From assembly GCA_902791335.1 (NCBI GenBank), contig CADAVL010000010.1, positions 1 through 26,669 on the forward strand: a stretch of DNA of 26,669 nt. Direction: 5' to 3'. Position 1 is the first letter of the stretch; each line of letters starts with the position of its first letter. The stretch comes from Oscillospiraceae bacterium (GTDB lineage Bacteria; Bacillota; Clostridia; Oscillospirales; Acutalibacteraceae). Positions 816 to 26,599 of the stretch are shown here, in pieces. A program made the translations under genes and the position numbers. The notes below the pieces were generated by a model. It searched no databases. It was given only the letters and a program-made list of their open reading frames with translations, and was not told the DNA's origin.

Positions 816-837
816 TTTTTTGGGTTCATTCCTTTCA

Positions 838-882: not shown

Positions 883-914
883 TTCCCTGAGAAAGAACCG
901 ACAAGCAAATTGTA

Positions 915-1052
915 ACTTGCTCTGTCCTTTTGCCTGAGAGATTGGCAAGCAAAAATGCGTTGCCGTACACCTTCGGCGCCCTTAAAGATCAACTAAGGTT
1001 TCGGCGATCGTTTGCCGATATCGGTTGATCGGGGGACTCTCCAGAGAACCGT
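915..1052 (-). promoter_or_regulatory. Glycine riboswitch aptamer (Rfam glycine family) in the leader of the AGCS symporter gene
   Basis: The minus strand shows the conserved blocks in order: CTCTGGAGAG (revcomp of 1037-1046), GGCGCCGAAGG..GGCAA (revcomp of ~965-990), and CTCTCAGGCAAAAGGACAGAG (revcomp of 920-940). These match the remembered glycine-aptamer consensus. A terminator follows. Confidence 0.7.
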
Positions 1053-1071
1053 CTTTTAAAAAACGACAAAA

Positions 1072-3983: not shown

Positions 3984-4206
3984 AATTCGGTGTTTTCAAT
4001 CGTTTTATGCATTTTGCACAAGATGTTGACCTAATTTTTAGGCAGGATTTTTGGGCGTTTTGGTTGCCGTTTTCAGATAAAACTGATAAAATGAACCTGG
4101 CCGGAAATTTTCAAATGTCAGGCGTGACGGGTTCTTCGTCTCGTTTTTCTAACCGGCCGACGTGCCAAAGCCCGTTTTTTGTGAGCGGCGGCAAAAATTT
4201 TTAAAA

Positions 4207-4236
4207 AGCATTCTTCAATAGGCAGGAGAAGAATGC
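4207..4236. promoter_or_regulatory. Perfect 9-bp inverted repeat, GCATTCTTC-N11-GAAGAATGC, about 100 bp upstream of the glycoside-hydrolase-like gene
   Basis: No U-tract follows, so an operator is more likely than a terminator. It lies between malQ and the downstream large gene. Confidence 0.3.
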
Positions 4237-4339
4237 CTGGGAGTATTGATATTTAAAGGGGCAGTTTATATTCGGTGGAACAATAAAAATAAAGCACCGA
4301 CGAGTGGCTTCCTTTAAATATAGAAAGAGAGTGTGTATC

Positions 4340-7300
4340 ATGATGAAAACAGGAGAAGTGTTTAAAAACCCACCGCAAATTTACCGCGGCACGGATTTTT
4401 GGATGCTCAACGACGAGCTGACCGACGATGAGATTCGCTTTCAGGTAAAGGAATTCGCCGATAAGGGCGTGGGTTCCTTTATTGCGAGAACCTATGTCGG
4501 CCTTCGGACCGACTATCCCGGCCCGAAGTGGAAACACCAGATCCGTGTGATGCTGGAGGAAGCCACCAAATATGGCTTAAAGGTTACCTTGCAGGCCAAA
4601 AGAATGCCCGGCGGCGTGAAGGATCTGCCGAAAAAGTACGTTTTGGGCGCTTTGGAGTGTTTGACGTACAAAGAGCTGAACGATAAGAATTACCGCTATC
4701 GCGGCGCATTTTCCAAAACGCTTTCGCGCTACAATGAATATTATATTGTAAAGCACACCACAGGCGACCCCGAGAAGGCCGGCGGTACGCTGAATATGTA
4801 CAGCGAGGAAGCCTGCGAATATTACGTCAACGAATGCTACGGCGATATGTGGGAGGAATTCCGCCCGTATTACGGCAACACGGTGTTCACTATGTGGGTG
4901 GACGAACCGAACTACAGCGACGAGACCCTGCCCTGGCCGGACAATCTGCCGGACGTTTTTAAAAAGCGCTGGGGATACGATATTTCGGCAAAAACCTACT
5001 TGCTGTTCTTTAATGTTGAAAATTACAAAGAGGTGCGTTATCACTACCGCGTCACTTTGCAGAAAATGATGGAGGAAGCCTACTTTACCCACATTCGCGA
5101 CTGGTGTCAGAAAAACAGGGTCAGCTTCAGCGGTCATTTGATGAACGAGGACGGCCTGCTTTCGCAGATTCTTCATGCCGGCGCGGTCATGCCTTATTAT
5201 AAATACTTTGACATTCCCGGTATTGACATTTTGGAGGCGGATATGCCCTGGCGCTACGGTGCGATCAAGGAGCCGCACCCGCGGGAGGATCTCGGCCGCG
5301 ACGAGCATACCGGCGAATATTACACCCCGATGTCCACGCTGGGGCAGTATACCACGCCGCTCCAGTGTACCTCTGCGGCGCATCAGGCTGGCAAGGAGCA
5401 CATGCTGTGCGAAATGTACGGCGTTACCACGAACAATTTTACTTTGCGCGATCAGCGGCGTATGTTCGATCACTTTGCAGCACTGGGCATTAATCACCGC
5501 TGTGTGCACGCCTATTTTTACAATCTGCACGGCCGCGCCAAGCGTGCATTTCCGGCGCAGATCAACTATTATCAGCCGTATTGGGAAAAATATCGCCCCA
5601 TGACGGACTATGTTGCAAGAGTCAGCTGGTTTATCAGCTGCGGCAAGCCGGTGCGCGATGTGCTGCTGATTCACCCGTTGGAAACGGCTTATATGCTGTT
5701 TGAAGGCATTAAAAACGGCGTGGAAAAGAACGATCTGCTCGACGATTACGACCGTCGCTATTTCCACCTGATTCGTGCGCTTTGCGGCATGCAGTGTCAG
5801 TTTGAATACGGCGACGAAGCCACCATCGGCGACTGGGGCAAGGTACAGGACGGTCGCTTCTCGGTGGGTGAGATGTCTTATAAGACCGTGGTCTTGCCGT
5901 ATCTTGACGTGATTCGCAAATCAACGCTCCAAAAGCTGTCGGAATATAGAAAGAAAGGCGGCAAGGTTTATATTCTCGGCACGCTGCCCACAAGACTGGA
6001 CGGCTGCGAGGACAAAAATCTTGCGCAGAAGCTTTTGGATATGGGCTGTATTTTCTGCGAACACCGCAAGGAGCTTTTGGATCTGTTAGTTTCCGAAAAC
6101 ACCGATTTTTCGCTTTCCTGCACGTCGGATATTACGCCGATTCTTGTAAACCACCGCGCTGACGAACATACGGATTATTTCTTTTTGATGAACGACGACT
6201 GCACCGACGATCGAGAGCTTACGCTTACACTGAAAGGTGAAAGAAGCCTGTTCCTTTATGACGCTTTTACCGCCGAGGTCACCCCCTACAGCGGAGAATA
6301 TAAAAACGGTGAAACGGTGTTCACGGTCAAATTAGAGGCCGGTTCCAGTAAGATGATCCAAGCGCAAAAAGCGGCGTTTCAGCAGATAGAAAAGCCCTCC
6401 GGAGAATACCGTGTCCGCGCGGTTTCCGACGATTGGGCGCTTAAAAGAAACGATCCCAATGTCATGCTTTTGGAATTCTGCCGATACAAAAGGGAAGAAT
6501 GGAGCGATTTTACAGAAAAATCCTATCCTGCAATTACCATCGGCGAAATGCTGGAGCGCGAGGAGTATTCCGGCAAGATCACGCTGCAATTTGAATTTTG
6601 CGCGAAGCAGGCGGTAAAACCGCGCCTTGTGGTGGAGGACGCTGCGCTTTCGGAAATCACCTTCAACGGCAAACCGGTCAATAACCGTCCGCTGGGTCAT
6701 TATGTGGCGCACGCGTTTGAGATTTTGGAGCTGCCGGAGGCTTGTAAAGTCGGCAAAAACACGGTGGAGATTACCCGACAGTTCTTCCCCAAGGCCAAAA
6801 TGAGTGGGCTTGACAGCGACCAGACCTGCGTGGATCTCGAATCTATTTATCTGATCGGCGATTTCGGCGTATTTTCCCGTCCGGAGCCTGCGGTCAACGG
6901 CACGCTGCGCTACAGCCGCTATTTTGCACTGGATCGCGAAACGCCGAAGGCCGGCAAGGATATCACCAAAGAGGGCTATCCTTTTTACACCGGTACAATG
7001 TCCTTTATAAAGGATGTGGAAGTTTCCGAAAAGGACCTGAGAAGTGCCAAAGTTCTCTTCCACTTTGAGGAATTCAACGGTTGTGTGGCCGAGGTATTTG
7101 TCAATGAGCAGTCCGCCGGCTGTGTGTTCTGGGCGCCTTATGAAATGGACTTGAAACCTTTCTTGAAGCCCGGTGCCAACCGCGTGCGCGTGGAGGTCAC
7201 CAATTGCCTTCGGAACCTTTTAGGTCCGTATCACCGCGTAGCCGGTGAGATCGGCAACCTTTGGGGCGGATACGACGCGCCGAACCTGCCATGGAGCGGC

Positions 7301-13446: not shown

Positions 13447-14349
13447 TCACAGCTTTTGTTGCCTTTTTAAGCGGTCGATGATAAGATTTCGGAATTCCGG
13501 CGGTTCGGTCACCTCCACCATGGGACCAAAACTCAAAATTCGGATCACCAGCTCCGTTTCATCGAATTTGTTATATTTTATAAAAAGGGAATATTTCTTT
13601 TCGCCGATCTTTTCCACCCGCTTTTCAAAGTGTGCAAAATGGAGCAGCGTTCGCTCCAGTGCGTTGCGGTCGTCATACACCAGCAAGGTTACGGTTTCTT
13701 TGGATTCTATCGGGTTTGGCGCGGCCGGTATTTCGGCGGCGTCGCATTTGTCGCACGAGAGAATGCGCGCAAGATTGATAATGCTGCCGCAACGGCGGTC
13801 GGTGCCGATCAGGCGGAACTTATCGTCCTTTTCGGAGTATTCAAGGCTCTTTGGCGCCACCGTCATCGAAACGGTGCGACCCGAACGGTTCACCGCCCGA
13901 ATTTTCAAAAGTCGGTTTTGGGAGAGCGCGGACAGAATCGTTCTGAAATTTTTGATGTAAGCTTCATCGCAAAACGGGTCACCGTCGCTGTATTGGTCGT
14001 AGATGCAGTAATCCTCCATAGTAAACAGCGGCTCTACGTCCCGAAGCGCCTCAAAATCCACGTCGAAAAGCTTTACCTTTGGGTCTTGTGAGATCGCCTT
14101 TAACCATTGCTTTTGTACCGTCGAAAGCGGCATGGTCGGCGTATGTTTCAGCGGCGTTGTAAGGTTTTTATGCATAAGTTGCCATTTTTCGCTTTTCAGC
14201 GCCGGCAGAATGGTCAAAACACTTTCCGAAAAAGCGTTTTCAAGCACGATCTTTTCCAAAATCCTTTCGTTGCGGCGGCCCGAGAGCAGGCTTTCAATAA
14301 TTTTTGCCACCGTGTGATAGTAAGCGGAGTAAATCTCGTTGAATATCAT
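13447..14349 (-). CDS. WYL-domain transcriptional regulator (HTH-WYL-WCX architecture), 300 aa
   Basis: WYL-like core LKIRAVNRSGRTVSMTVAPKSLEYSEKDDKFRLIGTDRRCGSIINLARILS. WCX-like C-terminus VTLLVYDDRNALERTLLHFAHFEKRV...LVIRILSFGPMVEVTEPPEFRNLIIDRL. It overlaps the upstream gene by 4 bp. Confidence 0.7.
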   Translation of the reverse strand: MIFNEIYSAYYHTVAKIIESLLSGRRNERILEKIVLENAFSESVLTILPALKSEKWQLMHKNLTTPLKHTPTMPLSTVQKQWLKAISQDPKVKLFDVDFEALRDVEPLFTMEDYCIYDQYSDGDPFCDEAYIKNFRTILSALSQNRLLKIRAVNRSGRTVSMTVAPKSLEYSEKDDKFRLIGTDRRCGSIINLARILSCDKCDAAEIPAAPNPIESKETVTLLVYDDRNALERTLLHFAHFEKRVEKIGEKKYSLFIKYNKFDETELVIRILSFGPMVEVTEPPEFRNLIIDRLKRQQKL

Positions 14350-15614
14350 GTTTCCGCCTCCTCAATGCCATATAAACGATACATTCTTTTAAGATCGTCT
14401 TCAAACCGTTTTTGAACCGCTTTGTTGGAAAAGCGCAACGACGTAATCCTGCAAATAAAGGTTCTGACCCACGGGGTGATCTCGCCCGAATCATAAACGT
14501 CGGCAGAAAACCGATAGGTGTTCTCGTCAAGCTTTTTCACCGTGCCCACGCGTTTTTCGCGCTCCAGGCGGTTTACAATGTATTGCTCGTTTTTTTGCAC
14601 TTTGACCGTAAATTCAACGTGCTCGGTGCGCTTGCCTTTTTCGCCGCATTTTCCGCCGTATTTTCCTGCGGTAACACCCCACATTTTCTTTTTCATTTCG
14701 GAAAGTGTTGCCCTCAGCACGTCAAAATTTGGCGCAGGTTCTTCCAATTTTACATCCAAAAGATAATCGACCCGAAAGGACTTGATCGCATTAAGCTGAG
14801 GGCAGTAAGCCATCAGGTGCTGGCGCCCGTTTTGCACGCTTAAAAAGATTCTTAATGGAACCACCCGATTTTTTCGCAGCTCACTATTGTGACGGCTGAG
14901 ATTCAAAAACGAAACAAAGCGCTTTTGGTGCATTGCATCAAAAAGGGTAGCTAGAATATCGCTGTCAATGGCGGACGTGATATAGTGGTGTTTAAAGCTG
15001 AAACAATCTGCCGAAGTTTTTTCCTGTTGATCCAGCAAAAATGAGCCGATCACGCCGCAGGGCGCTGTTTCGGAAAAGAAATTCAGAACGTCGGTTGAAA
15101 GGGAAACAGACGGGTCGTTTGCCCTGCGGTAAAGCAGCTTTTTGCCGGACTTTTCGGCCGTGATCAACCCAAGCGAAATATATTCCTGCAGCTTTTTCCG
15201 AACGGTCGATTCGTCAAAGAGCATCGGTTTTCGGAACTTCGCCAAATAGCCGTCGATCTTTTCCAAAATCTCTGTCAGCGGCAAAGAAACGTCGGGCGAA
15301 AAAAGAAGATCCAGCAAAATAAAATGCAGGGTAATATCCTTATCGGTAAAGCTTTTGGATTTCAGCGCCTTAAAAAACGGATTGTGCGCGCACGCGCGGC
15401 TGTCTACCGAGAGAAACACGTTTTTGCCCTCAGGCGTGCGGACGTAGCCCATATAATTGCCAAGCCAGCTTTCAATCCTGCGGCGCTCGTCGTCATAGGA
15501 ACGGGCGCTTTTTTTGTTGTATTCGTCCCGACTTTTAAAGCCGTAAACATAAAATTCGCGCATATAGCTCCGAATTTTTTCAAAATTCTTGATCAGCTCA
15601 TTGTAAGACGACAC
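14346..15614 (-). CDS. WYL-domain regulator with an extended N-terminus (~100 aa extension, then wHTH, WYL, WCX), 422 aa
   Basis: wHTH-like LTEILEKIDGYLAKFRKPMLFDESTVRKKLQEYISLGLI. WYL core VVPLRIFLSVQNGRQHLMAYCPQLNAIKSFRVDYLLDV. WCX-like YRFSADVYDSGEITPWVRTFICRITSL. GTG start with RBS AAAGGAGGG. Confidence 0.65.
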   Translation of the reverse strand: MSSYNELIKNFEKIRSYMREFYVYGFKSRDEYNKKSARSYDDERRRIESWLGNYMGYVRTPEGKNVFLSVDSRACAHNPFFKALKSKSFTDKDITLHFILLDLLFSPDVSLPLTEILEKIDGYLAKFRKPMLFDESTVRKKLQEYISLGLITAEKSGKKLLYRRANDPSVSLSTDVLNFFSETAPCGVIGSFLLDQQEKTSADCFSFKHHYITSAIDSDILATLFDAMHQKRFVSFLNLSRHNSELRKNRVVPLRIFLSVQNGRQHLMAYCPQLNAIKSFRVDYLLDVKLEEPAPNFDVLRATLSEMKKKMWGVTAGKYGGKCGEKGKRTEHVEFTVKVQKNEQYIVNRLEREKRVGTVKKLDENTYRFSADVYDSGEITPWVRTFICRITSLRFSNKAVQKRFEDDLKRMYRLYGIEEAET

Positions 15615-15826
15615 CGCGCTTTCCCTCCTTTTTGGCCCTGATTTTCGCCGCGTTTGCGTTTATATGGCACCCCTTGGTGGCAGTTTTCAACATTTTTTGA
15701 CACAGTTATATTTTATATCCTCATCAAGAAAAAATCAAGCCGCCCGACACTCAAAATTCGTGCCGTGCGGCTTTCAGCTGACGGGCGAACCCGTCACACA
15801 AAAATTTTAAATTAATCCAACGGCTT

Positions 15827-15990
15827 CATTGTCGGGATTCGGACAGAAGCCGGGAATTATCAAGGATTATCAAGCATTTACGAGCATTTTCCAAAAATAA
15901 AACCGCACAAACAAGGTCGTATCAAGAATTATCAAGAATTCCGACATGCGTATGTTGGTGTAACTTTTGGTGTAAGTGTAACCTTGATAG
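15827..15990 (+). repeat. Repeat copy A (~165 bp), about 90% identical to 25093-25270, carrying at least 5 TATCAAG-like iteron motifs
   Basis: Copy A reads ...GGGAATTATCAAGGATTATCAAGCATTTACGAGCATTTTCCAAAAATAAAACCGCACAAACAAGGTCGTATCAAGAATTATCAAGAATTCC...GGTGTAACTTTTGGTGTAAGTGTAACCTTGATAG. It aligns colinearly with copy B. Confidence 0.8.
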
Positions 15991-16098
15991 GAAGGTAGTT
16001 GCAGAGATAGTAAGTGACGAAACCTGCACAAGACAAGCCGTACTGCTCATATCGGGCAATATCAGGTGCCTTGCCCGTAGGGGGGGTAGAACTGTCTG

Positions 16099-16280
16099 CT
16101 AATTGGAAGGTGTAAAAGAACACACAAGACAGTAATCCCATTCAGCAAGCAGTTTCCTGTCCGTTGTGGCTAAATCATTGTATCCTGCAAGAACCGCCCT
16201 GTCCGTACAAACCGGGCATACTGTTCCTTTTACACGAACATTGATATTTCTTTCTTAGGCTTTGCAGCAGCTTTTGCCAT
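16099..16280 (-). pseudogene. Frameshifted N-terminal remnant of a DUF4379 zinc-ribbon-repeat protein, paralogous to 25355-26599
   Basis: RBS GGAGGT plus ATG gives MAKAAAKPKKEISMFV, then a stop. A +1 frame continues as NVRVKGTVCPVCTDRAVLAGYNDLATTDRKLLAEWDY. That matches the repeat unit of the intact paralog (VKGTSCPVCAERQVLRGHNDLATTDYMLCKEWDY). Confidence 0.55.
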
Positions 16281-16616
16281 TTGTATTACCTCCACATTCT
16301 ATTAGCTACTCGAATACAAGGTCGAATACAAGTATATCCTATCATTATAAGTGTCCAATAAAACGGACTTATGATTCGTCTTCGGGAAGAACATCCATAA
16401 AGATCAGCTGATTCTGGTATACTGCCGCAGCGGTAATCGGAGTAAGCAGGCATCTAAAAAAATGGTGAAATTGGGCTACACCAATATCATTGAGATCGGT
16501 GGAATTAATAGTTGGCCCGGTGAAACAGTCACCGGCGATAAGTGATAAAATCACAGAACAAGGAATGACTACCGGATATAATAAAGCTATAAAAAAGAAA
16601 ACAGGAGGACTTAAAT

Positions 16617-16922
16617 ATGTCTGCTATCAGTGTTAATAAAAATAATTTCAATCAAGAGGTTTTGAACTCGGACAAGCCCGTCCTGATGGATTTCTGGGCT
16701 CCCTGGTGTGGTCCTTGCCGCATGGTAGTTCCTCTGGTAGAGGAGATTGCCAAGGAGCGCTCCGATATCAAGGTTGTTAAAATTAATGTGGATGAGGAAC
16801 AGGAACTGGCTATGCAGTTCGGTGTGATGAGCATACCCACTCTGGTGGTTATGAAGAACGGAAAGATTGTCAATCAAGTCACCGGTGCCAGACCTAAGGC
16901 TCAGATTCTCGCCATGCTGTAA
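16617..16922 (+). CDS. trxA: Thioredoxin
   Basis: WAPWCGPCR active site, 101 aa, RBS AGGAGG. Confidence 0.9.
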
Positions 16923-16934
16923 GGAGGTGCAATG

Positions 16935-17255
16935 ATGAGCTTCTTCGATTTCCTGAAAGGCCCTGACATCAATCAGGGTGTCAAAGAGTATAGCGCCACG
17001 GATAGCGCAGTCCTGCTGGATGTTCGCACCCCCGACGAATACCGGCAGGGGCATATCCCCGGCAGTAAAAATGTTCCTTTGCAGTCCATTAGCAAAGTGG
17101 CCGGCATGATTGACAATAAATCTACCCCCATTTTTGTTCATTGTCTCAGCGGTGCAAGAAGCCGTCAGGCAACTGCTATTTTGCAGCAAATGGGTTATAC
17201 TAACGTGAAAAACATAGGCGGAATTTCCGCTTATACAGGAAAGGTAGAACGATAA
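16935..17255 (+). CDS. Single-domain rhodanese (sulfurtransferase)
   Basis: Active-site loop VHCLSGARS. ~106 aa. RBS AAGGAGG. ATG at 16932 or 16935. Confidence 0.85.
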   Translation: MSFFDFLKGPDINQGVKEYSATDSAVLLDVRTPDEYRQGHIPGSKNVPLQSISKVAGMIDNKSTPIFVHCLSGARSRQATAILQQMGYTNVKNIGGISAYTGKVER

Positions 17256-17256
17256 T

Positions 17257-18947
17257 ATGAAAGTTGTCATTGTAGGCGGTGTGGCAGGCGGTGCTACCGC
17301 TGCCGCCCGTATTCGCAGACTGAATGAGCAGGCAGAAATCGTAGTGTTTGAGCGGTCGGGATATATCTCCTATGCCAACTGTGGTCTGCCGTACTATATC
17401 GGTGATGTGATTACCGATCCCGAAGAACTGACCCTACAAACACCGGAAAGCTTCTTCTCCCGGTTCCTTGTAAACATGAAGGTGCGCCATGAGGTCACGG
17501 CTATCCATCCCGAAAAAAAGAAGTTACCGTGAAAAATCTGGAAACCGGTGAGGAGTTCGAGGAGAGCTATGACAAGCTGATTCTCTCTCCCGGAGCCAAG
17601 CCTACCCAGCCCCGGCTTCCCGGTATAGGAATCGGCAAGCTATTTACGTTGCGTACTGTGGAGGACACCTTCCGCATCAAAGACTACATTAACAAAAACC
17701 ATCCTAAATCCGCTGTACTGGCAGGCGGTGGCTTCATTGGATTGGAGCTGGCAGAGAACCTGCGAGAGTTGGGGATGGATGTCACCATTGTCCAGCGTCC
17801 AAAACAGCTTATGAATCCCTTTGATGCCGATATGGCTTCTTTCATCCATAATGAAATGCGTAGGGCTGGTGTAAAGCTGGCACTTGGTCATACCGTAGAA
17901 GGGTTTGAGGAAAGGGACGGCGGCGTGGATGTGCTGCTGAAAGAAGAACAGCCTCTCCATGCAGATATGGTAATCCTGGCCATTGGTGTTTCTCCCGAAA
18001 CCACCCTTGCAAAGGATGCCGGGTTGGAGCTGGGCATTAAAGGAAGTATTGTGGTCAATGACCGAATGGAAACCTCCATTTCCGACATCTATGCCGTGGG
18101 CGATGCGGTGCAGGTGAAGCACTTCGTCACCGGGAAGGATGCTCTGATCTCTTTGGCTGGCCCTGCCAATAAACAGGGACGAATCGCTGCGGACAACATC
18201 TGTGGCGGAGACAGCCATTATACCGGCTCCCAAGGCAGCAGTGTCATCAAGATCTTCGGCATGACTGCCGCTACTACCGGCGTAAATGAGACCAACGCCA
18301 GAAAAACAGGGCTGGATGTTGATACGGTTATCCTGTCGCCCATGAGCCATGCAGGTTACTACCCCGGCGGGAAAGTCATGACAATGAAGGTGGTCTTTGA
18401 AAAGGCGACTTATCGCCTGCTGGGTGCGCAGATCGTAGGCTATGAAGGTGTGGATAAGCGCATTGATGTGCTGGCCACCGCTATCCGGGCCGGAATGAAA
18501 GCCACGGAACTGAAGGATCTGGATCTGGCCTACGCACCGCCTTATTCTTCTGCGAAAGATCCGGTAAATATGGCTGGCTTTATGGTTGAGAATATCGCAA
18601 ACGGTGTTCTGAAACAATGGCATCTGGAAGATGCAGATCGCCTTCCTCGTGACGGAAGCGTAACTCTGTTGGACACCCGCACTGTGAAAGAATTCGCACA
18701 CGGACACATTGACGGCTTCTTTAACATCCCGGTGGACGAGCTGCGGGAGCGGCTGGGTGAGCTGGACAAGCGTAAGCCTGTCTACGTCATCTGTCAGAGC
18801 GGTCTGCGCAGCTACATTGCCTGTCGTATCCTGGCCGGAAACGGCTTTGACTGCTATAACTTCTCCGGCGGCTTTCGGTTCTATGATGCTGTGACCAATG
18901 ATCGCTGTCTCATTGAATCGGCTACGGCCTGCGGAATGGACAAATAA
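17257..18947 (+). CDS. cdr: CoA-disulfide / CoA-persulfide reductase with C-terminal rhodanese domain (CoADR-RHD). It is interrupted by a -1 frameshift in an A7 run at 17513-17519. This is either a pseudogene or a sequencing error.
   Basis: ORF 17257-17532 carries the FAD motif VVIVGGVAGGATAAARI and the redox Cys (SYANCGLPY). ORF 17529-18947 continues the pyridine-nucleotide-disulfide oxidoreductase fold and ends with a rhodanese domain (VYVICQSGLRS). Adding one A in the run restores IHPEKKEVTVKNLETGEEF. The combined length of ~563 aa is the expected size. Confidence 0.85.
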
Positions 18948-18949
18948 AC

Positions 18950-18997
18950 ATCCGCCGCATCTCTCCAACAATTTTGGTAGAGATGCGGCGGATTTTC
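18950..18997. terminator. Bidirectional intrinsic terminator with a 15-bp perfect stem, ATCCGCCGCATCTCT/AGAGATGCGGCGGAT
   Basis: The stem is followed by TTTCATCC on the plus strand. It lies between the convergent CoADR and ZIP genes. Confidence 0.7.
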
Positions 18998-19040
18998 ATC
19001 CTCTGACTGCAGCAAACATTTCAAACATCTTAATCACACT

Positions 19041-19796
19041 TTACCCCAAAAAGAAATTACTGACCAGCATCACACAGAATCCGGCCAGGAGCGCATAGGT
19101 TGCTCCGGTCTCGCTGCCGTGGGCATGGGTTTCGGGAATCATTTCATCACTGATGACATAGAGCATGGTTCCTCCCGCAAAGGCCAGAGCAAAGGGGAGA
19201 ATGGCCGAAGCAATGCTTACGGCCCAATATCCCAGAAGCGTACCGACGACTTCGATCAGCCCGGTCACCATGGCGCAGACAAAGGTTTTTACCGGGGATA
19301 CGCCTGCTGCCAGCATGGGCGCAATGATCACCATGCCTTCGGGGATGTTCTGCAGGGCGATACCGCAGGCGATCATCATCGCCTGCGCCGTGTCTTCACT
19401 TCCAAAGCTGACACCGGCGGCAATCCCCTCCGGCAGGTTATGGATCGCGATGGCTGTGACAAACAGCAATACCTTGTCAAGGTTGGCGCTGCGGTGTGTT
19501 TCCGTATCGGTTCCCACCAGCCTATGCAGGTGGGGAACCAGCTTATCAATGAGATTCAGGCACACCGCCCCAGTAAAGATCCCGATGATGGAAATGAGGA
19601 TCCCATGGGTTCCGCCATAATTGAGAGATGGCAGAATAAGTCCCAGTACAGCCGCAGACAGCATAACACCTGCCGCAAAGGACAGCACTATGTCGGAGAA
19701 TTTGTGGGAGATCTTCCGAAAGACAAAGCCAATGAGACTTCCAAAAATGGTCGCGCCCCCCACGCCGAGGGCGGTAAGCAATACGATTTTCATCAT
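19041..19796 (-). CDS. zupT: ZIP-family divalent metal (Zn/Fe) transporter, ZupT-like
   Basis: MMKIVLLTALGVGGATIFGSLIGFVF resembles the ZupT N-terminus. HNLPEGIAAGVSFG and ALQNIPEGMVI are the signature metal-binding helices. I set the start at ATGATG (19796/19793) rather than the track's upstream GTG. Confidence 0.8.
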   Translation of the reverse strand: MMKIVLLTALGVGGATIFGSLIGFVFRKISHKFSDIVLSFAAGVMLSAAVLGLILPSLNYGGTHGILISIIGIFTGAVCLNLIDKLVPHLHRLVGTDTETHRSANLDKVLLFVTAIAIHNLPEGIAAGVSFGSEDTAQAMMIACGIALQNIPEGMVIIAPMLAAGVSPVKTFVCAMVTGLIEVVGTLLGYWAVSIASAILPFALAFAGGTMLYVISDEMIPETHAHGSETGATYALLAGFCVMLVSNFFLG

Positions 19797-19812
19797 CAAC
19801 GATACAGGTCTT

Positions 19813-20472
19813 CTATTTATCAGAAAGTTCCTGCAATCTCCTTTCTTCACAAATCTCCACGATGCCCCGCGCCAGCTTCACCATACCCTCGTTCTGGAAA
19901 TAGCGAAGCATTCGGGTAACTACCTCACGGGCGGTGCCCATGTGGCCCGCAATGGTTTCATGGGTAATCTTGAGGGTGTTTGTTTCCTCTATGCTGCATT
20001 CCTCCAGCAGAAATTCTGCCAGCCTTTTATCAAAGCTTTTCCACATTATCTGCTCCATGAGCCACATAACCTCAGAAAAACGGGTAGCCATAATTTCGTT
20101 GGTAAAATTAGCTACCACAGCAGACTCTTTCATTAAGCGACCATAAGTGTCAGCAGAAATAACCCACATCGTGGTATCCTTCTGCGCCTCAATGGTGATC
20201 TCAAACTGAATGCTGTTCATCATACAGGAGGCGGAAAACAGGCAAATATCCCGATCAAACAAACGATAGAGGCTAATCTCCCGTCCTTCATCGGAAAGAA
20301 GATAGGCACGAAGCTGTCCGCTTTTTACCAGCAGAAGACCGGTACACTCCACAGTTCCGTTGTGAATCACAGTCCCCTTGTCCACTTTTCGTAAAACTGC
20401 ATTTTGCTCCAAAATCTGCTGCTGGGTCGGTGTCAGTTTGTTCCAAATTGGAAAATAGGATGAAAAATCCAT
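19813..20472 (-). CDS. Crp/Fnr-family transcriptional regulator (219 aa): cNMP-binding-like domain plus C-terminal HTH
   Basis: HTH region TLKITHETIAGHMGTAREVVTRMLRYFQNEGMV with an N-terminal beta-barrel. RBS AAGGAGG is followed 7 nt later by ATG at 20472. The rest of the 517-aa track ORF is antisense to the DUF134-NifX gene. Confidence 0.85.
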   Translation of the reverse strand: MDFSSYFPIWNKLTPTQQQILEQNAVLRKVDKGTVIHNGTVECTGLLLVKSGQLRAYLLSDEGREISLYRLFDRDICLFSASCMMNSIQFEITIEAQKDTTMWVISADTYGRLMKESAVVANFTNEIMATRFSEVMWLMEQIMWKSFDKRLAEFLLEECSIEETNTLKITHETIAGHMGTAREVVTRMLRYFQNEGMVKLARGIVEICEERRLQELSDK

Positions 20473-20516
20473 GGATACACCTCCTTGAATACACATAGTA
20501 TAAAATAATTTATGGC

Positions 20517-20565
20517 ATCTGTCAATAATTTCGTTGACATATAGGAAATGGAGATGTATAATGGT
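20517..20565. promoter_or_regulatory. Divergent back-to-back promoters. Plus strand: TTGACA-N17-TATAAT (20533-20561). Minus strand: TTGACA-N17-TATACT.
   Basis: The two -35 hexamers form TGTCAA-N8-TTGACA. They drive the Crp/Fnr gene leftward and the DUF134 gene rightward. Confidence 0.5.
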
Positions 20566-20607
20566 CATATAAATGACATATGCCGTAAATAATATGGTGG
20601 TGAATCT

Positions 20608-21378
20608 ATGCCAAGACCGAGAAAATGCAGAAAAGTTTGTTGTTTGCCGGATAATGATGGTTTTGTTCCGGTTCGTGGCGGCGAGGAACTGACTCCCATT
20701 GTCCTGAATGTGGATGAGTATGAATCCATTCGCCTGATTGACCGTGAAGGTTTTTCTCAGGAGCAATGCGGAGAATATATGCGTATTGCCAGAACAACGG
20801 TTCAGCAGATTTATGCAGCTGCCCGCAAAAAACTGGCCGATGCGCTGGTTGAGGGACTTCCTCTGCGAATCGAGGGAGGGGATTTTACACTCTGCAGCGG
20901 AAACAGCGCAGCCTACGGGTGCAGAAATTGCTATCAGCAAAAAATCCATCCGATGCACGAAAAACCGAAAGGAGATCATATTATGAGAATTGCAGTCACT
21001 TATGAAAACGGAGAAATCTTTCAGCACTTCGGTCACACCGAACAGTTTAAACTCTACGATGTGGAAGATGGAAAAATCATTTCGTCTGAGGTTGTGGATG
21101 CTGGCGGCAGCGGACATGGTGCACTGGCAGGCGTCCTGCGTGCACTGAAGGTGGATGCCCTGATCTGCGGCGGTATTGGCGGCGGTGCCCAGATGGCACT
21201 GAGCGATGTGGGTATCCGGCTTTATGGTGGTGTTTCCGGCAACGCTGATGCAGCAGCAGAAGCACTGGCAGCAGGCGAGCTGGACTTCAACCCCAATGTC
21301 CGGTGTGATCATCACGACCACCATGGGGAAGGTCACTCTTGCGGTTTTCACGGCTGCGGCCATCACTCCTGCGACTGA
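20608..21378 (+). CDS. Fusion of a DUF134 (UPF0251) putative DNA-binding domain with a NifX/NifB-like (dinitrogenase FeMo-cofactor family) domain, plus a C-terminal His/Cys-rich tail. 256 aa.
   Basis: MPRPRKCRKVCCLPDNDGFVP is the DUF134 signature. MRIAVTYENGEIFQHFGHTEQFKLYDV...ALICGGIGGGAQMAL is the NifX-like fold. The tail is CDHHDHHGEGHSCGFHGCGHHSCD. An internal AAAGGAGA-N7-ATG sits at the domain junction (~20975-20992). Confidence 0.75.
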   Translation: MPRPRKCRKVCCLPDNDGFVPVRGGEELTPIVLNVDEYESIRLIDREGFSQEQCGEYMRIARTTVQQIYAAARKKLADALVEGLPLRIEGGDFTLCSGNSAAYGCRNCYQQKIHPMHEKPKGDHIMRIAVTYENGEIFQHFGHTEQFKLYDVEDGKIISSEVVDAGGSGHGALAGVLRALKVDALICGGIGGGAQMALSDVGIRLYGGVSGNADAAAEALAAGELDFNPNVRCDHHDHHGEGHSCGFHGCGHHSCD

Positions 21379-21460
21379 AATAGGTGATTAAGTCACGGAA
21401 TATGTGTCGTGATTTGATAAAATATAGTTAAAGGAGGCGGTAAAACCTAAGTAATAAATC

Positions 21461-21489
21461 TTGATAAATTCACAGAATTGTGATATAAT
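21461..21489 (+). promoter_or_regulatory. Promoter TTGATA-N17-TATAAT whose spacer holds the palindrome TCACA-GAAT-TGTGA
   Basis: TTGATA 21461-21466, TCACA 21470-21474, TGTGA 21479-21483, TATAAT 21484-21489. The operator-like 5-4-5 palindrome overlaps the core promoter of the hydrogenase-rubrerythrin gene. Confidence 0.45.
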
Positions 21490-21556
21490 TATTGTGTATA
21501 AACTGGCAAACAAAAACAATTTCAGAATAAACAATTAAGAATAAAGGAGAAATGAA

Positions 21557-23620
21557 ATGGCAGAGCATTTACCACTATCTGTTCGGGTGCCGATTGAAGC
21601 GGATAACCCAAGTATTTGCCGCAAAGAAGAGCTTTGCATCAAGTGCGGACAATGCCGTGAGGTCTGCACGAATGAAATCGGTGTTCACGGTACATATTCC
21701 TTCGAGCAAACCGAAGGAAAGGCGATCTGTATCCACTGCGGACAGTGTGCAAACGTCTGTCCTACCGCAAGCATTACCGAGGTCTACGAATACCCGGACG
21801 TGAAGGCGGCTATCGCAGATCCCGATAAGATCGTTATCGTCAGCACGTCCCCCTCTGTGCGCGTTGCTCTCGGTGAAGAGTTTGGAATGGCGAAAGGAAG
21901 CTTCGTGCAGGGTAAAATGATCGCCCTTATGCGTGCTCTCGGTGCCGATTACGTCCTGGATACCAACTTTGCCGCAGACCTAACCATCGTTGAGGAAGCA
22001 AGCGAGCTTGTTCGTCGCATTACGACAGGAGATAAGCCCCTGCCTCAGTTTACAAGCTGCTGCCCTGCGTGGGTGAAGTTTGCTGAAACCTACTATCCCG
22101 AAATGCTCCCGCACGTATCAACTGCCAAGAGCCCCATCGGTATGCAAGGCCCCACTATTAAGACCTACTTCGCCCAGAAGATGGGTATTGATCCGAAGAA
22201 GATCGTTAACGTAGCACTTACCCCCTGTACTGCGAAGAAATTCGAGATCCGACGCGAGGAAATGAACGCCGCAGGCAAGAAGCTCGGTATCCCCGAAATG
22301 CGCGATATGGACTACGTTGTTACAACTCGCGAGCTTGCTCTTTGGGCAAAGGAAGCAAAGATCGACTTTGCTTCGCTTGAGGATAGCGATTACGACCGCT
22401 TTATGGGTGAAGCATCGGGTGCAGGCGTGATCTTCGGTAATACCGGAGGTGTTATGGAGGCAGCGCTTCGTACTGCATACTCCTATATCACGGGTGAGAT
22501 CCCCCCGGGCGCACTTCTTGACCTTAAGCCCGTTCGCGGATATGAGGGCATCAGAGAAGCAAGCCTTGACGTCAAGGGAACCACTGTAAACGTAGCTGTT
22601 GTTTATGGTACAGCCAACGCTCGCAAGCTCATCGAACTAATCAAGAGTGGCGAGAAGAACTACCACTTCGTTGAGGTGATGACCTGTCCCGGCGGATGCA
22701 TCGGCGGTGGCGGTCAGCCCCGTGATTTTGCGGCAGATGCTAATGCAAGCCGTAAGGCAAGAATCGAGAGCCTTTACAAGAGAGATGCCTCTTTGACTCT
22801 TCGTTCGAGCCACGAAAACCCTGAGATAAAGGAGCTTTACGAGGAATTTTACGGCAAACCGCTCAGTGAGCTTGCGGAAGAAATGCTCCATACTATGTAC
22901 ACTGATCGCTCAAGCGACATCAATAAAGAAATTATAAAAGGAGAAACAAAGAAAATGGAAAAATGGAAATGCACAGTCTGCGGTTACATTCACGAAGGCC
23001 CTATGACACCTGATTTTAAGTGCCCCATCTGCAAGCAGCCTGCCAACAAGTTTGTGAAGATTGAGGATGCTGCGGCTCCTGCAAAGAATCCCTATGCAGG
23101 TACCAAAACCGAGAAAAATCTGTGGGAAGCCTTTGCTGGTGAGAGTCAGGCCCGGAACAAGTACACCTACTTCGCCTCCGTCGCCAAGAAAGCCGGCTAC
23201 GAGCAGATCGCCGCGCTGTTCCTGCATACTGCACAGAACGAGATGGAGCACGCCAAGCTGTGGTTCAAAGCTCTGGGCGAGCTGGGTGATACTGCCGAGA
23301 ACCTGCTCCATGCTGCTGAAGGTGAGAACGCCGAGTGGACAGATATGTATGACCGCATGGCTCGTGAAGCTGATGAGGAGGGATTCCATGATCTGGCTGA
23401 ACAGTTCCGTGGCGTAGCTGCCATTGAGAAGATGCACGAGGAGCGCTACCGCAAGCTTTTGAGCAACGTGGAGGCTATGCAGGTGTTTGAGAAGAGCGGC
23501 GTTACCATCTGGGAGTGCCGTAACTGCGGACATATCGTAGTAGGAACCAAGGCTCCTGATATCTGCCCTGTCTGCAAACATCCTCAGGCATTCTTCGAAG
23601 TGCGTGCGGAAAACTATTGA
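21557..23620 (+). CDS. hydA: [FeFe]-hydrogenase catalytic subunit fused to rubredoxin, rubrerythrin and a C-terminal rubredoxin-like domain. 687 aa.
   Basis: Two ferredoxin-like Cys motifs ([23 protein letters not shown]). H-cluster motifs are [17 protein letters not shown] and [16 protein letters not shown]. Rubredoxin CTVCGY...CPICKQP follows, then rubrerythrin diiron helices ([11 protein letters not shown]...NEMEHAKLW...[11 protein letters not shown]...IEKMHEERY), then C-terminal CRNCGH...CPVCKHP. RBS AAAGGAGA. Confidence 0.85.
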
Positions 23621-23639
23621 TAAAACGGAGGAAATTAAA

Positions 23640-24017
23640 ATGAGTGCAAAGTTTTATATCTGCCGTCATTGCGGCAATCTGGTTGGTATGATTCACGACG
23701 CAGGTGTTCCCATGATGTGTTGTGGTCAGAAAATGGAGACTCTTGAGCCTAACACCGTAGAAGCCAGCGGCGAAAAGCATCTGCCTGCTGTTACTGTTGA
23801 AGATGGTGCAATCCATGTCAATGTGGGTTCTGTAGATCATCCTATGCTTCCGGAGCATTTCATCGAGTGGATCTATGTCCAGACCGAAAACGGTGGTCAG
23901 CGTAAGGTTTTGAAGCCCGGTGACGAACCCCATGTCACCTTCTTCCTGGGAGACGATAAAGCAGCAGCTGTCTATGCTTATTGCAATCTCCACGGCTTGT
24001 GGAAAACTGAAATTTAA
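23640..24017 (+). CDS. dfx: Desulfoferrodoxin (2Fe superoxide reductase)
   Basis: N-terminal desulforedoxin-like CRHCGN...MCCGQ. C-terminal SOR ligands EKHLP...H...CNLHGLW. RBS GGAGG is followed 8 nt later by ATG at 23640 (the track start at 23604 has no RBS). Confidence 0.85.
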   Translation: MSAKFYICRHCGNLVGMIHDAGVPMMCCGQKMETLEPNTVEASGEKHLPAVTVEDGAIHVNVGSVDHPMLPEHFIEWIYVQTENGGQRKVLKPGDEPHVTFFLGDDKAAAVYAYCNLHGLWKTEI

Positions 24018-24034
24018 CATGGAGGTTCTTGTAA

Positions 24035-24544
24035 ATGAACGAAAAAGTACATGCGCTTATCAATCAACAGATAAATAAGGAATTCTATTCCGCATACCTT
24101 TATCTCAATTTTTCAAACTATTTCGAGGAAGTCGGGCTTGACGGCTTTGCCAACTGGTATAAAATTCAGGCTCAGGAAGAGCGTGACCACGCCATGCTTT
24201 TCTATCAGTACCTGCAAAACGAAAACCAGAAGGTAACGCTTGAAGCCATTGACAAGCCTAATCTGAATGCAGCTTGCCATATGGATGTTTTGAAGGCGGG
24301 TCTTGAGCACGAAAAATATGTAACCTCGCTGATTAATGATATCTATAGTGAGGCTTACGAAGCAAGGGATTTCCGTACCATGCAGTTCCTCGATTGGTTT
24401 GTGAAAGAACAAGGTGAAGAAGAAACCAATGCAAATAATTTGATTTCCAAAATGGAACTCTTTGGCTCCGATCCCAAAAGCTTGTATATGCTCAATCAGG
24501 AATTGGCAGCACGAATTTACTCTGCTCCTTCTTTGGTTCTTTAA
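24035..24544 (+). CDS. ftn: Bacterial non-haem ferritin
   Basis: LINQQINKEFYSAYLYLNFSNYF...QAQEERDHAMLFYQYL ferroxidase-centre helices. 169 aa. RBS GGAGG. Confidence 0.9.
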   Translation: MNEKVHALINQQINKEFYSAYLYLNFSNYFEEVGLDGFANWYKIQAQEERDHAMLFYQYLQNENQKVTLEAIDKPNLNAACHMDVLKAGLEHEKYVTSLINDIYSEAYEARDFRTMQFLDWFVKEQGEEETNANNLISKMELFGSDPKSLYMLNQELAARIYSAPSLVL

Positions 24545-24582
24545 TCACTATAGCCTATAGATGATGGAAGTATAAAAGGCAG

Positions 24583-24619
24583 TATGCCGCCTGTCGGTTT
24601 TCCGGCAGGCGTTTTTTTA
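24583..24619 (+). terminator. Intrinsic terminator after ferritin: GCCGCCTGTCGG/CCGGCAGGC stem followed by GTTTTTTT
   Basis: Stem at 24585-24594 and 24602-24610 with one mismatch. U-tract at 24611-24618. Confidence 0.6.
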
Positions 24620-24692
24620 CAGAGGATGCCTATGATTTAAGATAATGCCAGCTTTATCTATTTACATCGCATAGATGAAGTAGAACTGAACA

Positions 24693-24935
24693 TTGAGGAT
24701 AAGGCAGCAATATATCCGTTATAATAAAAAGCAAAACAGTTACTCGTGGGAATATCAACCCAAAGGATATATGGAGTTACCCGCCAAAATCAAATGGGTC
24801 AAAGAACAGGGATTATGGCAACAGGTTCGTAAATATTATTTATACAAGAAGAACACAAACGATAACCCTAATAAACATTCAAGAACAATCTTTGCAGAAA
24901 CCATTCACGAAATATGGCAGAAGAATAAAGATTAA
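24693..24935 (+). CDS. Hypothetical Lys/Tyr-rich small ORF (80 aa) between two terminators. The coding status is doubtful.
   Basis: Open frame only. The start is non-ATG (TTG) and RBS support is weak. An internal ATG (MELPAKIKW) is preceded by AAAGGA with short spacing. I could not recognise a domain. Confidence 0.2.
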   Translation: MRIRQQYIRYNKKQNSYSWEYQPKGYMELPAKIKWVKEQGLWQQVRKYYLYKKNTNDNPNKHSRTIFAETIHEIWQKNKD

Positions 24936-24939
24936 AAAA

Positions 24940-24967
24940 GCAGGTATCAAATTACTTTGATACCTGC
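24940..24967. terminator. 12-bp perfect hairpin GCAGGTATCAAA-TTAC-TTTGATACCTGC. A U6 tract follows on the minus strand.
   Basis: On the minus strand it would terminate transcripts that read from the DUF4379 gene (25355-26599) through repeat copy B. Confidence 0.6.
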
Positions 24968-25092
24968 TAAAACTTTAATAAGTTCTCATATTGTGTCAGG
25001 ATAATTTCTGAAGCCGTGGGTAAATCGTGGGTAAAATGCCTTTTTTGACACTTTCAAAACCACGAAAACCCGCATAAATAAAGGGTTTTATT

Positions 25093-25270
25093 AGTCCAAC
25101 GATTTCATTGTGGGGATTCGGGCAGAAACCGGGAATTATCGGGAATTATCAAGCATTTACGGGCATTTTACAAAAATAAAACCACACGAACAAGGTCGTA
25201 TCGAGAATTATCAAGAATTCTGTAATGAGTATGTTGGTGTAACTTTTGGTGTAAGGTGTAACCTTGATAC
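25093..25270 (+). repeat. Repeat copy B (~170 bp), about 90% identical to 15827-15990, with the same TATCAAG-like motif array
   Basis: Reads ...GGGAATTATCGGGAATTATCAAGCATTTACGGGCATTTTACAAAAATAAAACCACACGAACAAGGTCGTATCGAGAATTATCAAGAATTCTG...GGTGTAACTTTTGGTGTAAGGTGTAACCTTGATAC. Confidence 0.8.
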
Positions 25271-25354
25271 ATTGAATTGCCCACCAAAGAAACGCATCTC
25301 TTTTATTTGGCATATAAGCATTATACACCAAAAGTCCGAGAAAATCAAGTGATG

Positions 25355-26599
25355 TCACTGTTGTGTAATATCTTTCCATTTGAAAAAAGCCTTTTTGCAT
25401 TTCTCAATATCTTCTTGACTGTTTGAAAGGATATATATGTTTTTCTTTTGAAATATCTTTTTGATTTTATCCGCAAGTTCATAGTGATTTTTTGCTGAAA
25501 CCTCAAAATATGATATTCCGTTCATTTTACATAAGTGCTCTTTAACCGCCCTTTCATTTTCGTTTCCCGACCTTTTATCTATGCGCTCAATAACAGAAAA
25601 CATATCAGGGATATATGTTTCCACCGGCAGTCCGATTATATTATCGTCAAATGTGACTACTCTCATATTATACTGTTTTGCATATAACGAAACCAAAAGC
25701 TGAACAAGCAAGCTGTCAAATTCAGATTCGCAAACCGAGCAGGTTTTGCCTTCGTGAGTTCGCTCACATATTTTTGCATTCCAACTGTGGCCGTACCTGC
25801 ATAACCACCACGCACGATTATGTGAATTTCTCGAAATCTCGGTTGGTGACACTTTGTTTTTTTCGTAGTCCCATTCCTTACATAGCATATAATCTGTCGT
25901 GGCTAAATCATTATGTCCTCTCAATACTTGTCGTTCAGCGCAAACCGGACAAGAAGTCCCTTTTACACGGGCACTGATTACAGACTTCCACTCATTGCCA
26001 CACGCCTTACACTTCCACCAAACATTCTTCGTGGACTTTGCATTAACCTGATCAGGGGAAAGAGGAAAGTTATGTTCAGACCATTCTTCTGCAATCGTAG
26101 GATGCGTGGTGGCAAGATCATTAAATCCTTTTAGTAATTTAATACCGCTGCAATAAGGGCATTGACTGCCTCCGGCTCTCGTAGATATCAAAGTGTACCA
26201 TTCATGTCCGAGACTGCATTTCCACCAAACTTTTTTATTCTTAAATGCCGTAACCATATTCGGGTACAATGGATAATTTCGCTCCGACCATTCTGCGGCA
26301 AGCTTTGGAAATCGTGAAGCAAGATCGTTAAATCCGGGCAGAACAATGTTGTGTAAGCAATAAGGACAGCCTGTGCCATTCACTCGGCTCTTTACTTCCG
26401 CCGCCCATTCGTGACCGCACTTTCCGTGCCATAATACTTTCTTATGTGATCCGGCAGAAAGCTCTGTTGGTTTTATTTTATTCTTCGACGACCATTCCTC
26501 TGCTAACGAGGGATGTGTCGTATTTAGATCGTTGACTCCTGCTATGACTCTTGCGCCGGAGCATATAGGACATATCGCAATCGTTTTGCAGTTCGACAC
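25355..26599 (-). CDS. Multi-repeat zinc-ribbon (DUF4379-like) protein. It has four tandem ~55-aa treble-clef repeats and a C-terminal ~120-aa domain of unknown (possibly nuclease-like) fold. 414 aa.
   Basis: Repeating unit NDLATTHPxxAEEWSxxNxxxPxxVxxxSxKKVWWKCxxGHEWxxxISxRxxGxxCPYC. GTG start with RBS AAGGAGG. The region looks, by eye, low in GC relative to the first half of the window. Confidence 0.75.
   Translation of the reverse strand: MSNCKTIAICPICSGARVIAGVNDLNTTHPSLAEEWSSKNKIKPTELSAGSHKKVLWHGKCGHEWAAEVKSRVNGTGCPYCLHNIVLPGFNDLASRFPKLAAEWSERNYPLYPNMVTAFKNKKVWWKCSLGHEWYTLISTRAGGSQCPYCSGIKLLKGFNDLATTHPTIAEEWSEHNFPLSPDQVNAKSTKNVWWKCKACGNEWKSVISARVKGTSCPVCAERQVLRGHNDLATTDYMLCKEWDYEKNKVSPTEISRNSHNRAWWLCRYGHSWNAKICERTHEGKTCSVCESEFDSLLVQLLVSLYAKQYNMRVVTFDDNIIGLPVETYIPDMFSVIERIDKRSGNENERAVKEHLCKMNGISYFEVSAKNHYELADKIKKIFQKKNIYILSNSQEDIEKCKKAFFKWKDITQQ

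Follow-up and report, generated by a model that had tools for sequence, protein, structure and literature searches.

A conserved non-coding tail beside DUF4379 genes as the probable right arm of lysS-inserting elements in gut Oscillospiraceae

Introduction

The locus described here raises the question of what kind of element is represented by a conserved non-coding tail that follows genes for DUF4379 zinc-ribbon proteins. It lies in a 26,669-nt stretch of DNA from an Oscillospiraceae bacterium (GenBank assembly GCA_902791335.1, contig CADAVL010000010.1), the whole of which is called the window and amounts in essence to a complete ENA contig of gut-metagenome origin, and the tail consists of a repeat, present in the window in two copies (A and B), together with a spacer that separates copy B from an intact DUF4379 gene. 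The original prediction was that gene and tail make up a mobile unit reminiscent of the IS200/IS605 elements, with an RNA-like element 3' of the gene. The occurrence of the repeat with the DUF4379 gene is confirmed. The tail itself is very probably the right arm, working at the level of DNA, of attP (attR once integrated), the attachment site of elements with Tn916-type tyrosine integrases that insert in the lysyl-tRNA synthetase (LysRS) gene lysS of gut Oscillospiraceae/Clostridia.

The repeat and its copies

As an ungapped direct repeat pair the two copies are 85% identical over 189 nt (15788-15976 against 25067-25255), and with a single gap admitted the identity is 89.4% over 180 nt (15811-15989 against 25090-25269). 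As predicted, each copy stands 3', on the minus strand, of DUF4379 coding sequence, either a gene or a fragment, copy B 90 nt beyond a 414-aa open reading frame (ORF) and copy A about 150 nt beyond a 115-nt DUF4379 fragment. The features on which the argument turns are as follows, island E2 being the stretch between the two copies.

25355-26599, minus strand: gene for a 414-aa homing-endonuclease-like protein, with four DUF4379 zinc-ribbon repeats (PF14311, E 5.5e-61) and a predicted C-terminal Vsr/EDxHD-like PD-(D/E)xK fold.
25265-25354, minus strand: spacer, putative outer part of the right arm, bearing an outward-facing promoter-like site.
25348-25343 and 25325-25320, minus strand: -35 hexamer TTGATT and -10 hexamer TATAAT of that site, spacing 17 (promoter scan, 10/12 matches).
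25116-25264, minus strand: repeat copy B, putative inner part of the attP/attR right arm (repeat detection, alignment of copies).
25103-25115, minus strand: segment O, CCCCACAATGAAA, of copy B, identical to the lysS codons ..PTMK..
16132-16246, minus strand: internal fragment of a type-2 DUF4379 gene, beside copy A (ORF start and ribosome-binding site at 16282).
15837-15984, minus strand: repeat copy A, putative right arm closing island E2 (repeat detection, gapped alignment).
15824-15836, minus strand: segment O, CCCGACAATGAAG, of copy A (junction alignment, O scan).

Copy B contains sub-repeats phased at 10-11 nt, namely TTACACC (three times), GATAATTC-like motifs (three times) and GTAAAATGCCC/GTAAATGCTT, and the window has no GATAATTC site outside the two repeat copies, which contain all five. 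Both hexamers of the promoter-like site are kept in about 20 copies, among them one (L028) that has no DUF4379 gene; this candidate promoter would face outward, toward the split-off tRNA-binding domain described below.

When species-representative genomes were scanned for exact matches to 23 nt of the repeat's right part, the scan yielded an Oscillospiraceae metagenome-assembled genome (MAG; L002) and an uncultured member of the Clostridiales (L003), and a second pattern, from the left part, yielded 25 human-gut metagenome loci. Each of these 27 further copies from gut metagenomes and MAGs is 84-96% identical to copy B, and many of the matches lie at contig ends, as is to be expected of a repeat that is multi-copy. 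BLAST of the tail against phage records and pattern scans of viral contigs for the repeat gave no match. BLAST of the tail against plasmid records found a hairpin of 26-36 nt (AAAACCC...GGGTTTT, at 25056-25091) to be 92-100% identical to non-coding DNA in five mobilisable plasmids, whose sources are Aeromonas, Pseudomonas and an uncultured bacterium (E between 8e-4 and 1e-2), matches which are probably due to chance.

The probable crossover site and the lysS target

The boundary of the repeat falls exactly at a segment, O, whose sequence also occurs unchanged within lysS (codons ..PTMK..). O is about 13 nt long, CCC[C/G]AC[A/G]ATGAA[A/G] (codons P-T-M-K), and in the junction alignment it is the only stretch common to the repeat, the native gene and every junction; upstream of it the native gene has LysRS codons, whereas the repeat has unrelated sequence. 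A scan of the window found O solely at 15824-15836 and 25103-25115. In 10 of the 27 further copies (L009, L011, L012, L016, L017, L021, L023, L024, L027 and L028) the repeat is followed by O and then by a tRNA_bind ORF, the left end of the repeat holding the ATG of this 156-159-aa ORF, which begins MKPLD... (PF01588, E 6.6e-24) and whose longer database homologs consist of a class II lysyl-tRNA synthetase (PF00152), a linker and a C-terminal tRNA_bind domain (PF01588). The empty site is present in L033, where an uninterrupted gene stands between greA and a LytTR regulator in the order greA-lysS::tRNA_bind-lytTR, and L034 is a second uninterrupted site which supplies the attB sequence. The LysRS of these gut Clostridia (L033, L034, P0030, P0038) has a C-terminal tRNA-binding domain of the Trbp111/CsaA-like type.

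It might be argued that the repeat, which in the ten loci stands directly upstream of the tRNA_bind ORF and brings with it a conserved promoter-like site, is simply the native cis-regulatory leader or promoter of a tRNA-binding-domain gene, duplicated round the genome. This is contradicted by the two empty sites, in which lysS includes the ORF as its 3' part and LysRS coding sequence precedes O; there is also no Shine-Dalgarno sequence, and no T-box or other Rfam match was found, so that the proposal seems barely credible. A T-box or other leader was rejected on the same ground, the empty sites showing that the region is not native. Three other readings were discarded. The repeat as coding DNA draws on long open frames in some copies, which are broken by in-frame stops (L002, L003) or by a 1-nt indel (copy A); a miniature inverted-repeat transposable element or insertion sequence is at odds with the lack of terminal inverted repeats and of target duplications, the boundaries being O and the stop codon of the gene; and an operator for the adjacent WYL regulators does not fit copy B, which has no downstream gene.

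Insertion at O leaves a LysRS of normal length and an orphan domain of 156-159 aa. There is no Shine-Dalgarno sequence ahead of the orphan ATG and the expression of the orphaned domain is therefore uncertain. Gene callers extend the orphan ORF into the preceding right arm (P0001, P0021, P0028, P0075, P0096, P0112), and the resulting proteins have at least five unrelated N-termini, each with ..PTMK at its end; another integrase family (L029-L031, within loci L029-L032) directly adjoins a longer 3' fragment of lysS. Several element families therefore use lysS.

A complete insertion, its integrases and its arms

One locus, L028, contains a complete single insertion, with two identical O sites (TCCCGACAATGAAG) at the ends of a 6.1-kb insert that separates the lysS core from the tRNA_bind portion. 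The order is lysS ending in ..FPTMKPIE-stop, left arm, xis-like gene, integrase, cargo, spacer and repeat, O, and the tRNA-binding domain. Its left arm carries tandem TCTATA decamers and a terminator, followed by ATAATTCC/GGATAATTC and GTTTACACC/ATTTACACC motifs. The integrases that adjoin the repeat in L021, L028 and L007/L025 combine PF00589 with PF02920, the arm-binding N-terminal domain of Tn916, and their presence agrees with the earlier proposal that gene and tail belong to mobile DNA. In L021 the integrase is directly upstream of the DUF4379 gene, in L007/L025 it lies just past O, and in L022 and L004 there are ParA and a ParB gene fused to an integrase 3' remnant. The elements seen are small, with xis-like, int, ParA/ParB and cargo genes, and no conjugation module has been seen in them so far.

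The right arm, of about 270 nt, is unusually conserved, and motifs are common to both arms: in L028, L004 and L014 the left arm likewise has tandem GATAATTC-like and TTACACC motifs. Tandem repeats of their own, of the TTACNNC type and spaced at about 10-12 nt, are found on other left arms.

L015: TTACGCC.
L020: TTAARCC.
L003: TTACGAC.
Window, after copy B: TTACCCAC.
L002: TTGACAAC.

Such variation is the pattern expected of arm-type sites that would co-vary with the recombinases presumed to bind them. An in-frame stop follows the ATG of O within 3-7 codons in every left-arm type (about eleven by our grouping), and a terminator follows that stop wherever the sequence was read further (L028 and both copies in the window). 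The presence of a stop so soon after O in all left arms implies that these ends are built to join lysS and to finish LysRS cleanly.

The mechanism proposed would be as follows. The target is a lysS gene encoding LysRS fused to a C-terminal Trbp111-like tRNA-binding domain, with O at the end of the synthetase core. The left end of an inserting element would supply 2-6 codons, a stop and a terminator, giving a clean end to LysRS, and the right end, made up of spacer and repeat, would offer its phased 10-11-nt direct repeats as putative arm-type binding sites for Int/Xis, together with the outward promoter-like site directed at the orphaned tRNA-binding domain. Successive elements would then pile up at O by accretion, and the DUF4379 gene would be merely the last gene ahead of the attachment-site arm.

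Probable tandem islands in the window

The remaining junction features of the window are given below.

25091-25108, minus strand: mini-ORF MKSLD-stop, putative replacement LysRS C-terminal codons and stop, left end of the next island (junction alignment).
24969-25090, minus strand: left arm of island E2, with tandem 11-mers TTACCCACG twice at 25014-25038 (repeat inspection).
24939-24968, minus strand: intrinsic terminator with 13-bp stem and U-run (T6), left end of E2 (terminator scan, folding).
15985-24938: cargo of island E2, comprising thioredoxin, rhodanese, a frameshifted CoA-disulfide reductase, ZIP, Crp, DUF134, a [FeFe]-hydrogenase-rubrerythrin fusion, desulfoferrodoxin and ferritin (Pfam).
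15812-15829, minus strand: mini-ORF MKPLD-stop, start of the module after copy A (junction alignment).
15727-15773, minus strand: terminator-like hairpin and U-run, left arm of the module after copy A, which holds the WYL pair at 13447-15614 (fold -33.9 kcal/mol, z = -3.9).

Since O occurs at only two sites in the window, and neither lysS nor a tRNA-binding domain accompanies it, each copy is a junction in which right arm, O, a few codons, stop and next left arm follow one another. On the sequence, copy B would end a first island, the one with the DUF4379 gene, and copy A a second, the 9.3-kb oxidative-stress island E2. The stretch between the two O sites (15824-25115) is 9.3 kb long, has O in direct orientation at both ends and carries oxidative-stress cargo only. 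No integrase match was found anywhere in the window, and the island can be described as resembling a cis-mobilisable element (CIME), that is, att-bounded and integrase-less. Transcripts of lysS, or read-through out of the preceding island, would be halted by the terminator at 24939-24968. This terminator is the hairpin with U6 that had been taken to end a 3' tail of about 400 nt; the 13-bp hairpin and T6 are indeed there, about 415 nt from the stop codon of the DUF4379 gene, but they belong to the left end of the next island.

Independent support for tandem accretion at one att site comes from seven contigs of other samples (L036-L042), one of them of 2.5 Mb, which are 99% identical to positions 23500-25116 of the window (ferritin, a small ORF, terminator, left arm and O). 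The homology stops inside O, at 25116, and beyond it there is a different right arm without a DUF4379 gene.

A number of considerations weigh against interpreting the tail as an attachment-site arm. The window contains no integrase, lysS core or tRNA-binding domain gene, and the link to lysS for this genome, whose array would be anchored at lysS, therefore rests on homologous contigs; look-ups with window proteins (ferritin, WYL) did not reach the lysS end of the array in this genome. The related loci are all short-read metagenome or MAG contigs, many of which break at the repeat, and individual junctions may be mis-joins. The same conserved right arm is found in elements whose integrases are only 47-55% identical, which is unusual if the sub-repeats are integrase-specific. 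Lastly, with no Shine-Dalgarno sequence before it, the tRNA-binding ORF may owe nothing of its expression to the outward promoter.

The DUF4379 gene and its product

DUF4379 sequence was assessed at 24 of the 27 further copies, the other three being excluded as the contig ends there. Its 3' end or a recognisable trace is present in 17 of the 24, separated from the repeat by a fixed 93-96 nt or, where degenerate, in certain cases by 120 nt, so that the expectation that the tail recurs with DUF4379 genes was borne out and the association is more than chance. The state of the gene is as follows.

Complete gene by the repeat (4 of the 24): L004, L011, L021, L022.
Gene running off the contig: L017, L020.
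5' part lost, 3' end kept: L006, L007, L012, L015, L025.
Degenerate traces: L018, L019, L026, L027.
Reduced to the last 25-35 nt: L005, L028.
Repeat without any DUF4379 sequence: L002, L003, L008, L010, L013, L024.

L009 corresponds to copy A. With its stop codon at 93-96 nt from the repeat, the gene and the tail travel and decay as one. At the position otherwise taken by the DUF4379 gene, about 40 nt from the repeat, L005 has a gene (oriented 286-912, minus strand) for SLATT_4, a SMODS/SLOG-associated effector with two transmembrane segments, which may be a passenger of the defence type.

The 414-aa ORF of the window is intact, as had been predicted, with a good ribosome-binding site and a GTG start. 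Its zinc-ribbon modules are of about 60 aa, four in the window protein and five in that of L004. The protein had been described as nuclease-like and distinct from TnpB, and this description holds. No RuvC/TnpB or HUH domain was detected in it, its Pfam matches are to DUF4379 only, and it has no match in PADLOC or NCBIfam; in PHROGs the repeat region matches phage families annotated 'HNH endonuclease' and 'endonuclease'. The C-terminal 135 aa match nothing in Pfam or among Protein Data Bank (PDB) sequences and have 214 homologs in the representative library, 32 of 45 sampled having DUF4379. An AlphaFold2 (AF2) model built on a 45-sequence alignment predicts that the C-terminal domain is of the Vsr/EDxHD-type nuclease fold, to which Foldseek lends only weak agreement; a model from a shallow alignment was unusable, with a predicted local distance difference test (pLDDT) score of 42.7. 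The window protein has IPD..VIERIDK, and the catalytic residues are no more than partly conserved across the 45 homologs, among which G44 is the sole invariant residue and Y27, P52, C78 and D118 are near-invariant. The gene product is nuclease-like and its gene plausibly a selfish one.

The fragment by copy A (16132-16246) shows 98% identity to a region at about aa 258-296, internal to a type-2 DUF4379 paralog that is intact in L006, and its translation is 58% identical to aa 198-245 of the 414-aa protein. The stretch 16099-16280 had been read as an N-terminal remnant of the gene; it is a DUF4379 coding remnant, but one of the internal part of this paralog. It had also been noted that the coding parts were about 75% identical and the non-coding parts about 90%, and that the latter might be under stronger constraint. 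The coding identity is indeed lower (71% over 87 nt against 89%), but mainly because the remnant and the intact gene are different paralogs and not through relaxed constraint. In L006 the type-2 gene (oriented 3618-5009, minus strand) lies about 270 nt after O and encodes a DUF4379-nuclease of 463 aa, 58% identical to the window protein. It is at the left end of a neighbouring island, and DUF4379 genes are therefore found on both sides of att junctions.

The identity of the arms (84-96%), set against about 50% between neighbouring integrases, invites an explanation that is compatible with an att arm and would account both for its conservation and for the frequent adjacency of the gene. A free-standing DUF4379-Vsr-like homing endonuclease gene (HEG) would insert at the inner edge of the arm, and repair, by co-converting the DNA on either side, would spread and homogenise the arm among elements that otherwise differ. 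A large, previously unrecognised homing-endonuclease-like group, described recently, has just this architecture of CapR/DUF4379-like repeats and an EDxHD/Vsr-like domain (PMC12350094). The window protein resembles this group and EDxHD/Vsr-like homing endonucleases such as I-Bth0305I in its several zinc-ribbon modules of about 60 aa, followed by a Vsr-like domain of about 100-130 aa, and in its mobile DNA context; it differs in being a predicted nuclease whose gene is free-standing beside an att arm and not within an intron. The gene is present or absent at a fixed position (copy B as against L003 and L024), with a boundary about 15 nt from the stop codon, and the finding that only 4 of the 24 assessable copies have a complete gene (2 more run off the contig) resembles the HEG decay cycle. 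Against this, all full-length copies share one upstream context, the 3' end of an integrase, and independent invasions are thus unsupported; across the 45 aligned sequences the conservation of the catalytic residues is only partial; no target site was identified; and the arms could be homogenised just as well by homologous recombination from one tandem island to another. A homing cassette of this kind is accordingly regarded as rather unlikely, and it is just as doubtful that the DUF4379-Vsr-like protein is an active homing endonuclease whose gene is a selfish parasite of lysS-targeting elements at the inner edge of their arm. If it were true, homing co-conversion would explain how one arm of about 270 nt is kept at 84-96% identity amid integrases that are about 50% identical.

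The case for an RNA element

The attachment-site interpretation of the tail has also to be set against the one first put forward, in which gene and tail form a gene-plus-ncRNA (non-coding RNA) unit. The tail, whether transcribed together with the DUF4379 gene or after it, would yield a structured RNA acting jointly with the protein, as the omega RNA does with TnpB. Transcription as such is plausible, with a promoter-like site just past the stop codon and a strong terminator about 370 nt downstream, and it may well be that a transcript starts at the spacer promoter and reads out as far as the terminator. The minimum free energy (MFE) of the 420-nt stretch has a z-score of -3.9, which derives largely from hairpins of the terminator and left arm that are not conserved between copies. 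No Rfam family was matched by the tail at the gathering score, and at E<=10 the sole notable match was to IS102 at 29.6 bits (cut-off 46), over the terminator and left arm and off the conserved block. The folding check across homologs that had been suggested, carried out with RNAalifold on 20 distinct copies, gave a weak consensus fold of -18 kcal/mol for 177 nt, essentially without covariation (term -0.37), in a comparison whose power is limited by the 84-96% identity of the copies. Moreover, the lysS crossover site is where the conserved block stops, the copies differ in their 3' part, terminator included, the block is found without the gene in at least six loci, and the protein has no RuvC/TnpB or HUH domain. 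The limits of the tail are the lysS-derived O on one side and the DUF4379 stop codon on the other, and the reading as an RNA-like 3' element in the style of IS200/IS605 is not supported; nothing in the sequence suggests a functional RNA partner of the protein, and such a unit is considered very unlikely.

The resemblance to IS200/IS605 TnpB with its omega RNA is one of superficial layout only, a nuclease-like gene followed by conserved non-coding DNA; there is here no RuvC or HUH domain, no RNA structure signal and no subterminal hairpin end, and mobility is explained by tyrosine integrases.

Other features of the window

The WYL pair at 13447-15614 (minus strand) starts about 190 nt after copy A and encodes proteins of 422 aa, with WYL, and 300 aa, with WCX; its PADLOC matches are to generic CRISPR-associated WYL models only, and the same arrangement is seen in L043-L045. 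A CoA-disulfide reductase-rhodanese gene at 17257-18947 (plus strand) is split into ORFs of 91 and 472 aa and is a single gene of 563-571 aa in L035 and L038; the same split in L043 points either to a real frameshift or to a shared assembly error. The 517-aa 'Crp' ORF at 19813-21366 (minus strand) overlaps a DUF134/NifB-like gene at 20608-21378 (plus strand) and is probably an over-extension, Crp being of 219 aa in other contigs. A glycine riboswitch aptamer (RF00504, 51.9 bits) at 912-1054 (minus strand) is unrelated to the repeat.

Discussion

Integrative and conjugative elements (ICEs) and integrative and mobilisable elements (IMEs) of streptococci that use tyrosine integrases use lysS, in its 3' part, as their insertion site and have 13-17-bp direct repeats (Ambroset et al. 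2016, PMC4701971). The elements described here share with them the target gene, short lysS-derived direct repeats, an integrase near one end and an insertion laid out so as to leave the synthetase functional, and differ in their gut Oscillospiraceae/Clostridia hosts, in splitting off the tRNA-binding domain of lysS, in being small with no conjugation module so far, and in having an unusually conserved arm of about 270 nt. Accretion is equally a feature of the array in the window, in which tandem islands are parted by repeated att sites and some, such as the 9.3-kb island, have no recombinase. Accretion arrays, CIMEs and recombinase-less islands belong to the established picture of the ICESt1/ICESt3 family; any lysS anchor of the present array would lie outside this contig. 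In comparison with attP of the Tn916/lambda type, there is the same PF02920 arm-binding domain, and a short core is likewise flanked by phased 10-11-bp direct repeats. The elements here are site-specific, unlike Tn916 itself, whose target specificity is low, and the binding of their repeats is putative.

The use of lysS as an ICE target in streptococci and tandem accretion with recombinase-less islands are thus already known. What is new is the host group, the splitting of a LysRS-tRNA-binding fusion, the number of elements at the site, and the homing-endonuclease-like passenger by the arm. A candidate 'protein plus guide RNA' system is struck off and replaced by a concrete map in which uncultured gut Clostridia would have an integration hotspot at the junction of the LysRS core and the tRNA-binding domain. 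The lysS site is shared by about eleven different left ends of elements, and islands stack there in arrays, which would account for assembly breaks at the repeat and for chimeric 'tRNA-binding' proteins with odd N-termini. The integrase-less island offers a way in which a 9-kb set of oxidative-stress genes could move, and a member of the DUF4379/CapR-Vsr homing-endonuclease-like group is placed in a defined niche beside att sites.

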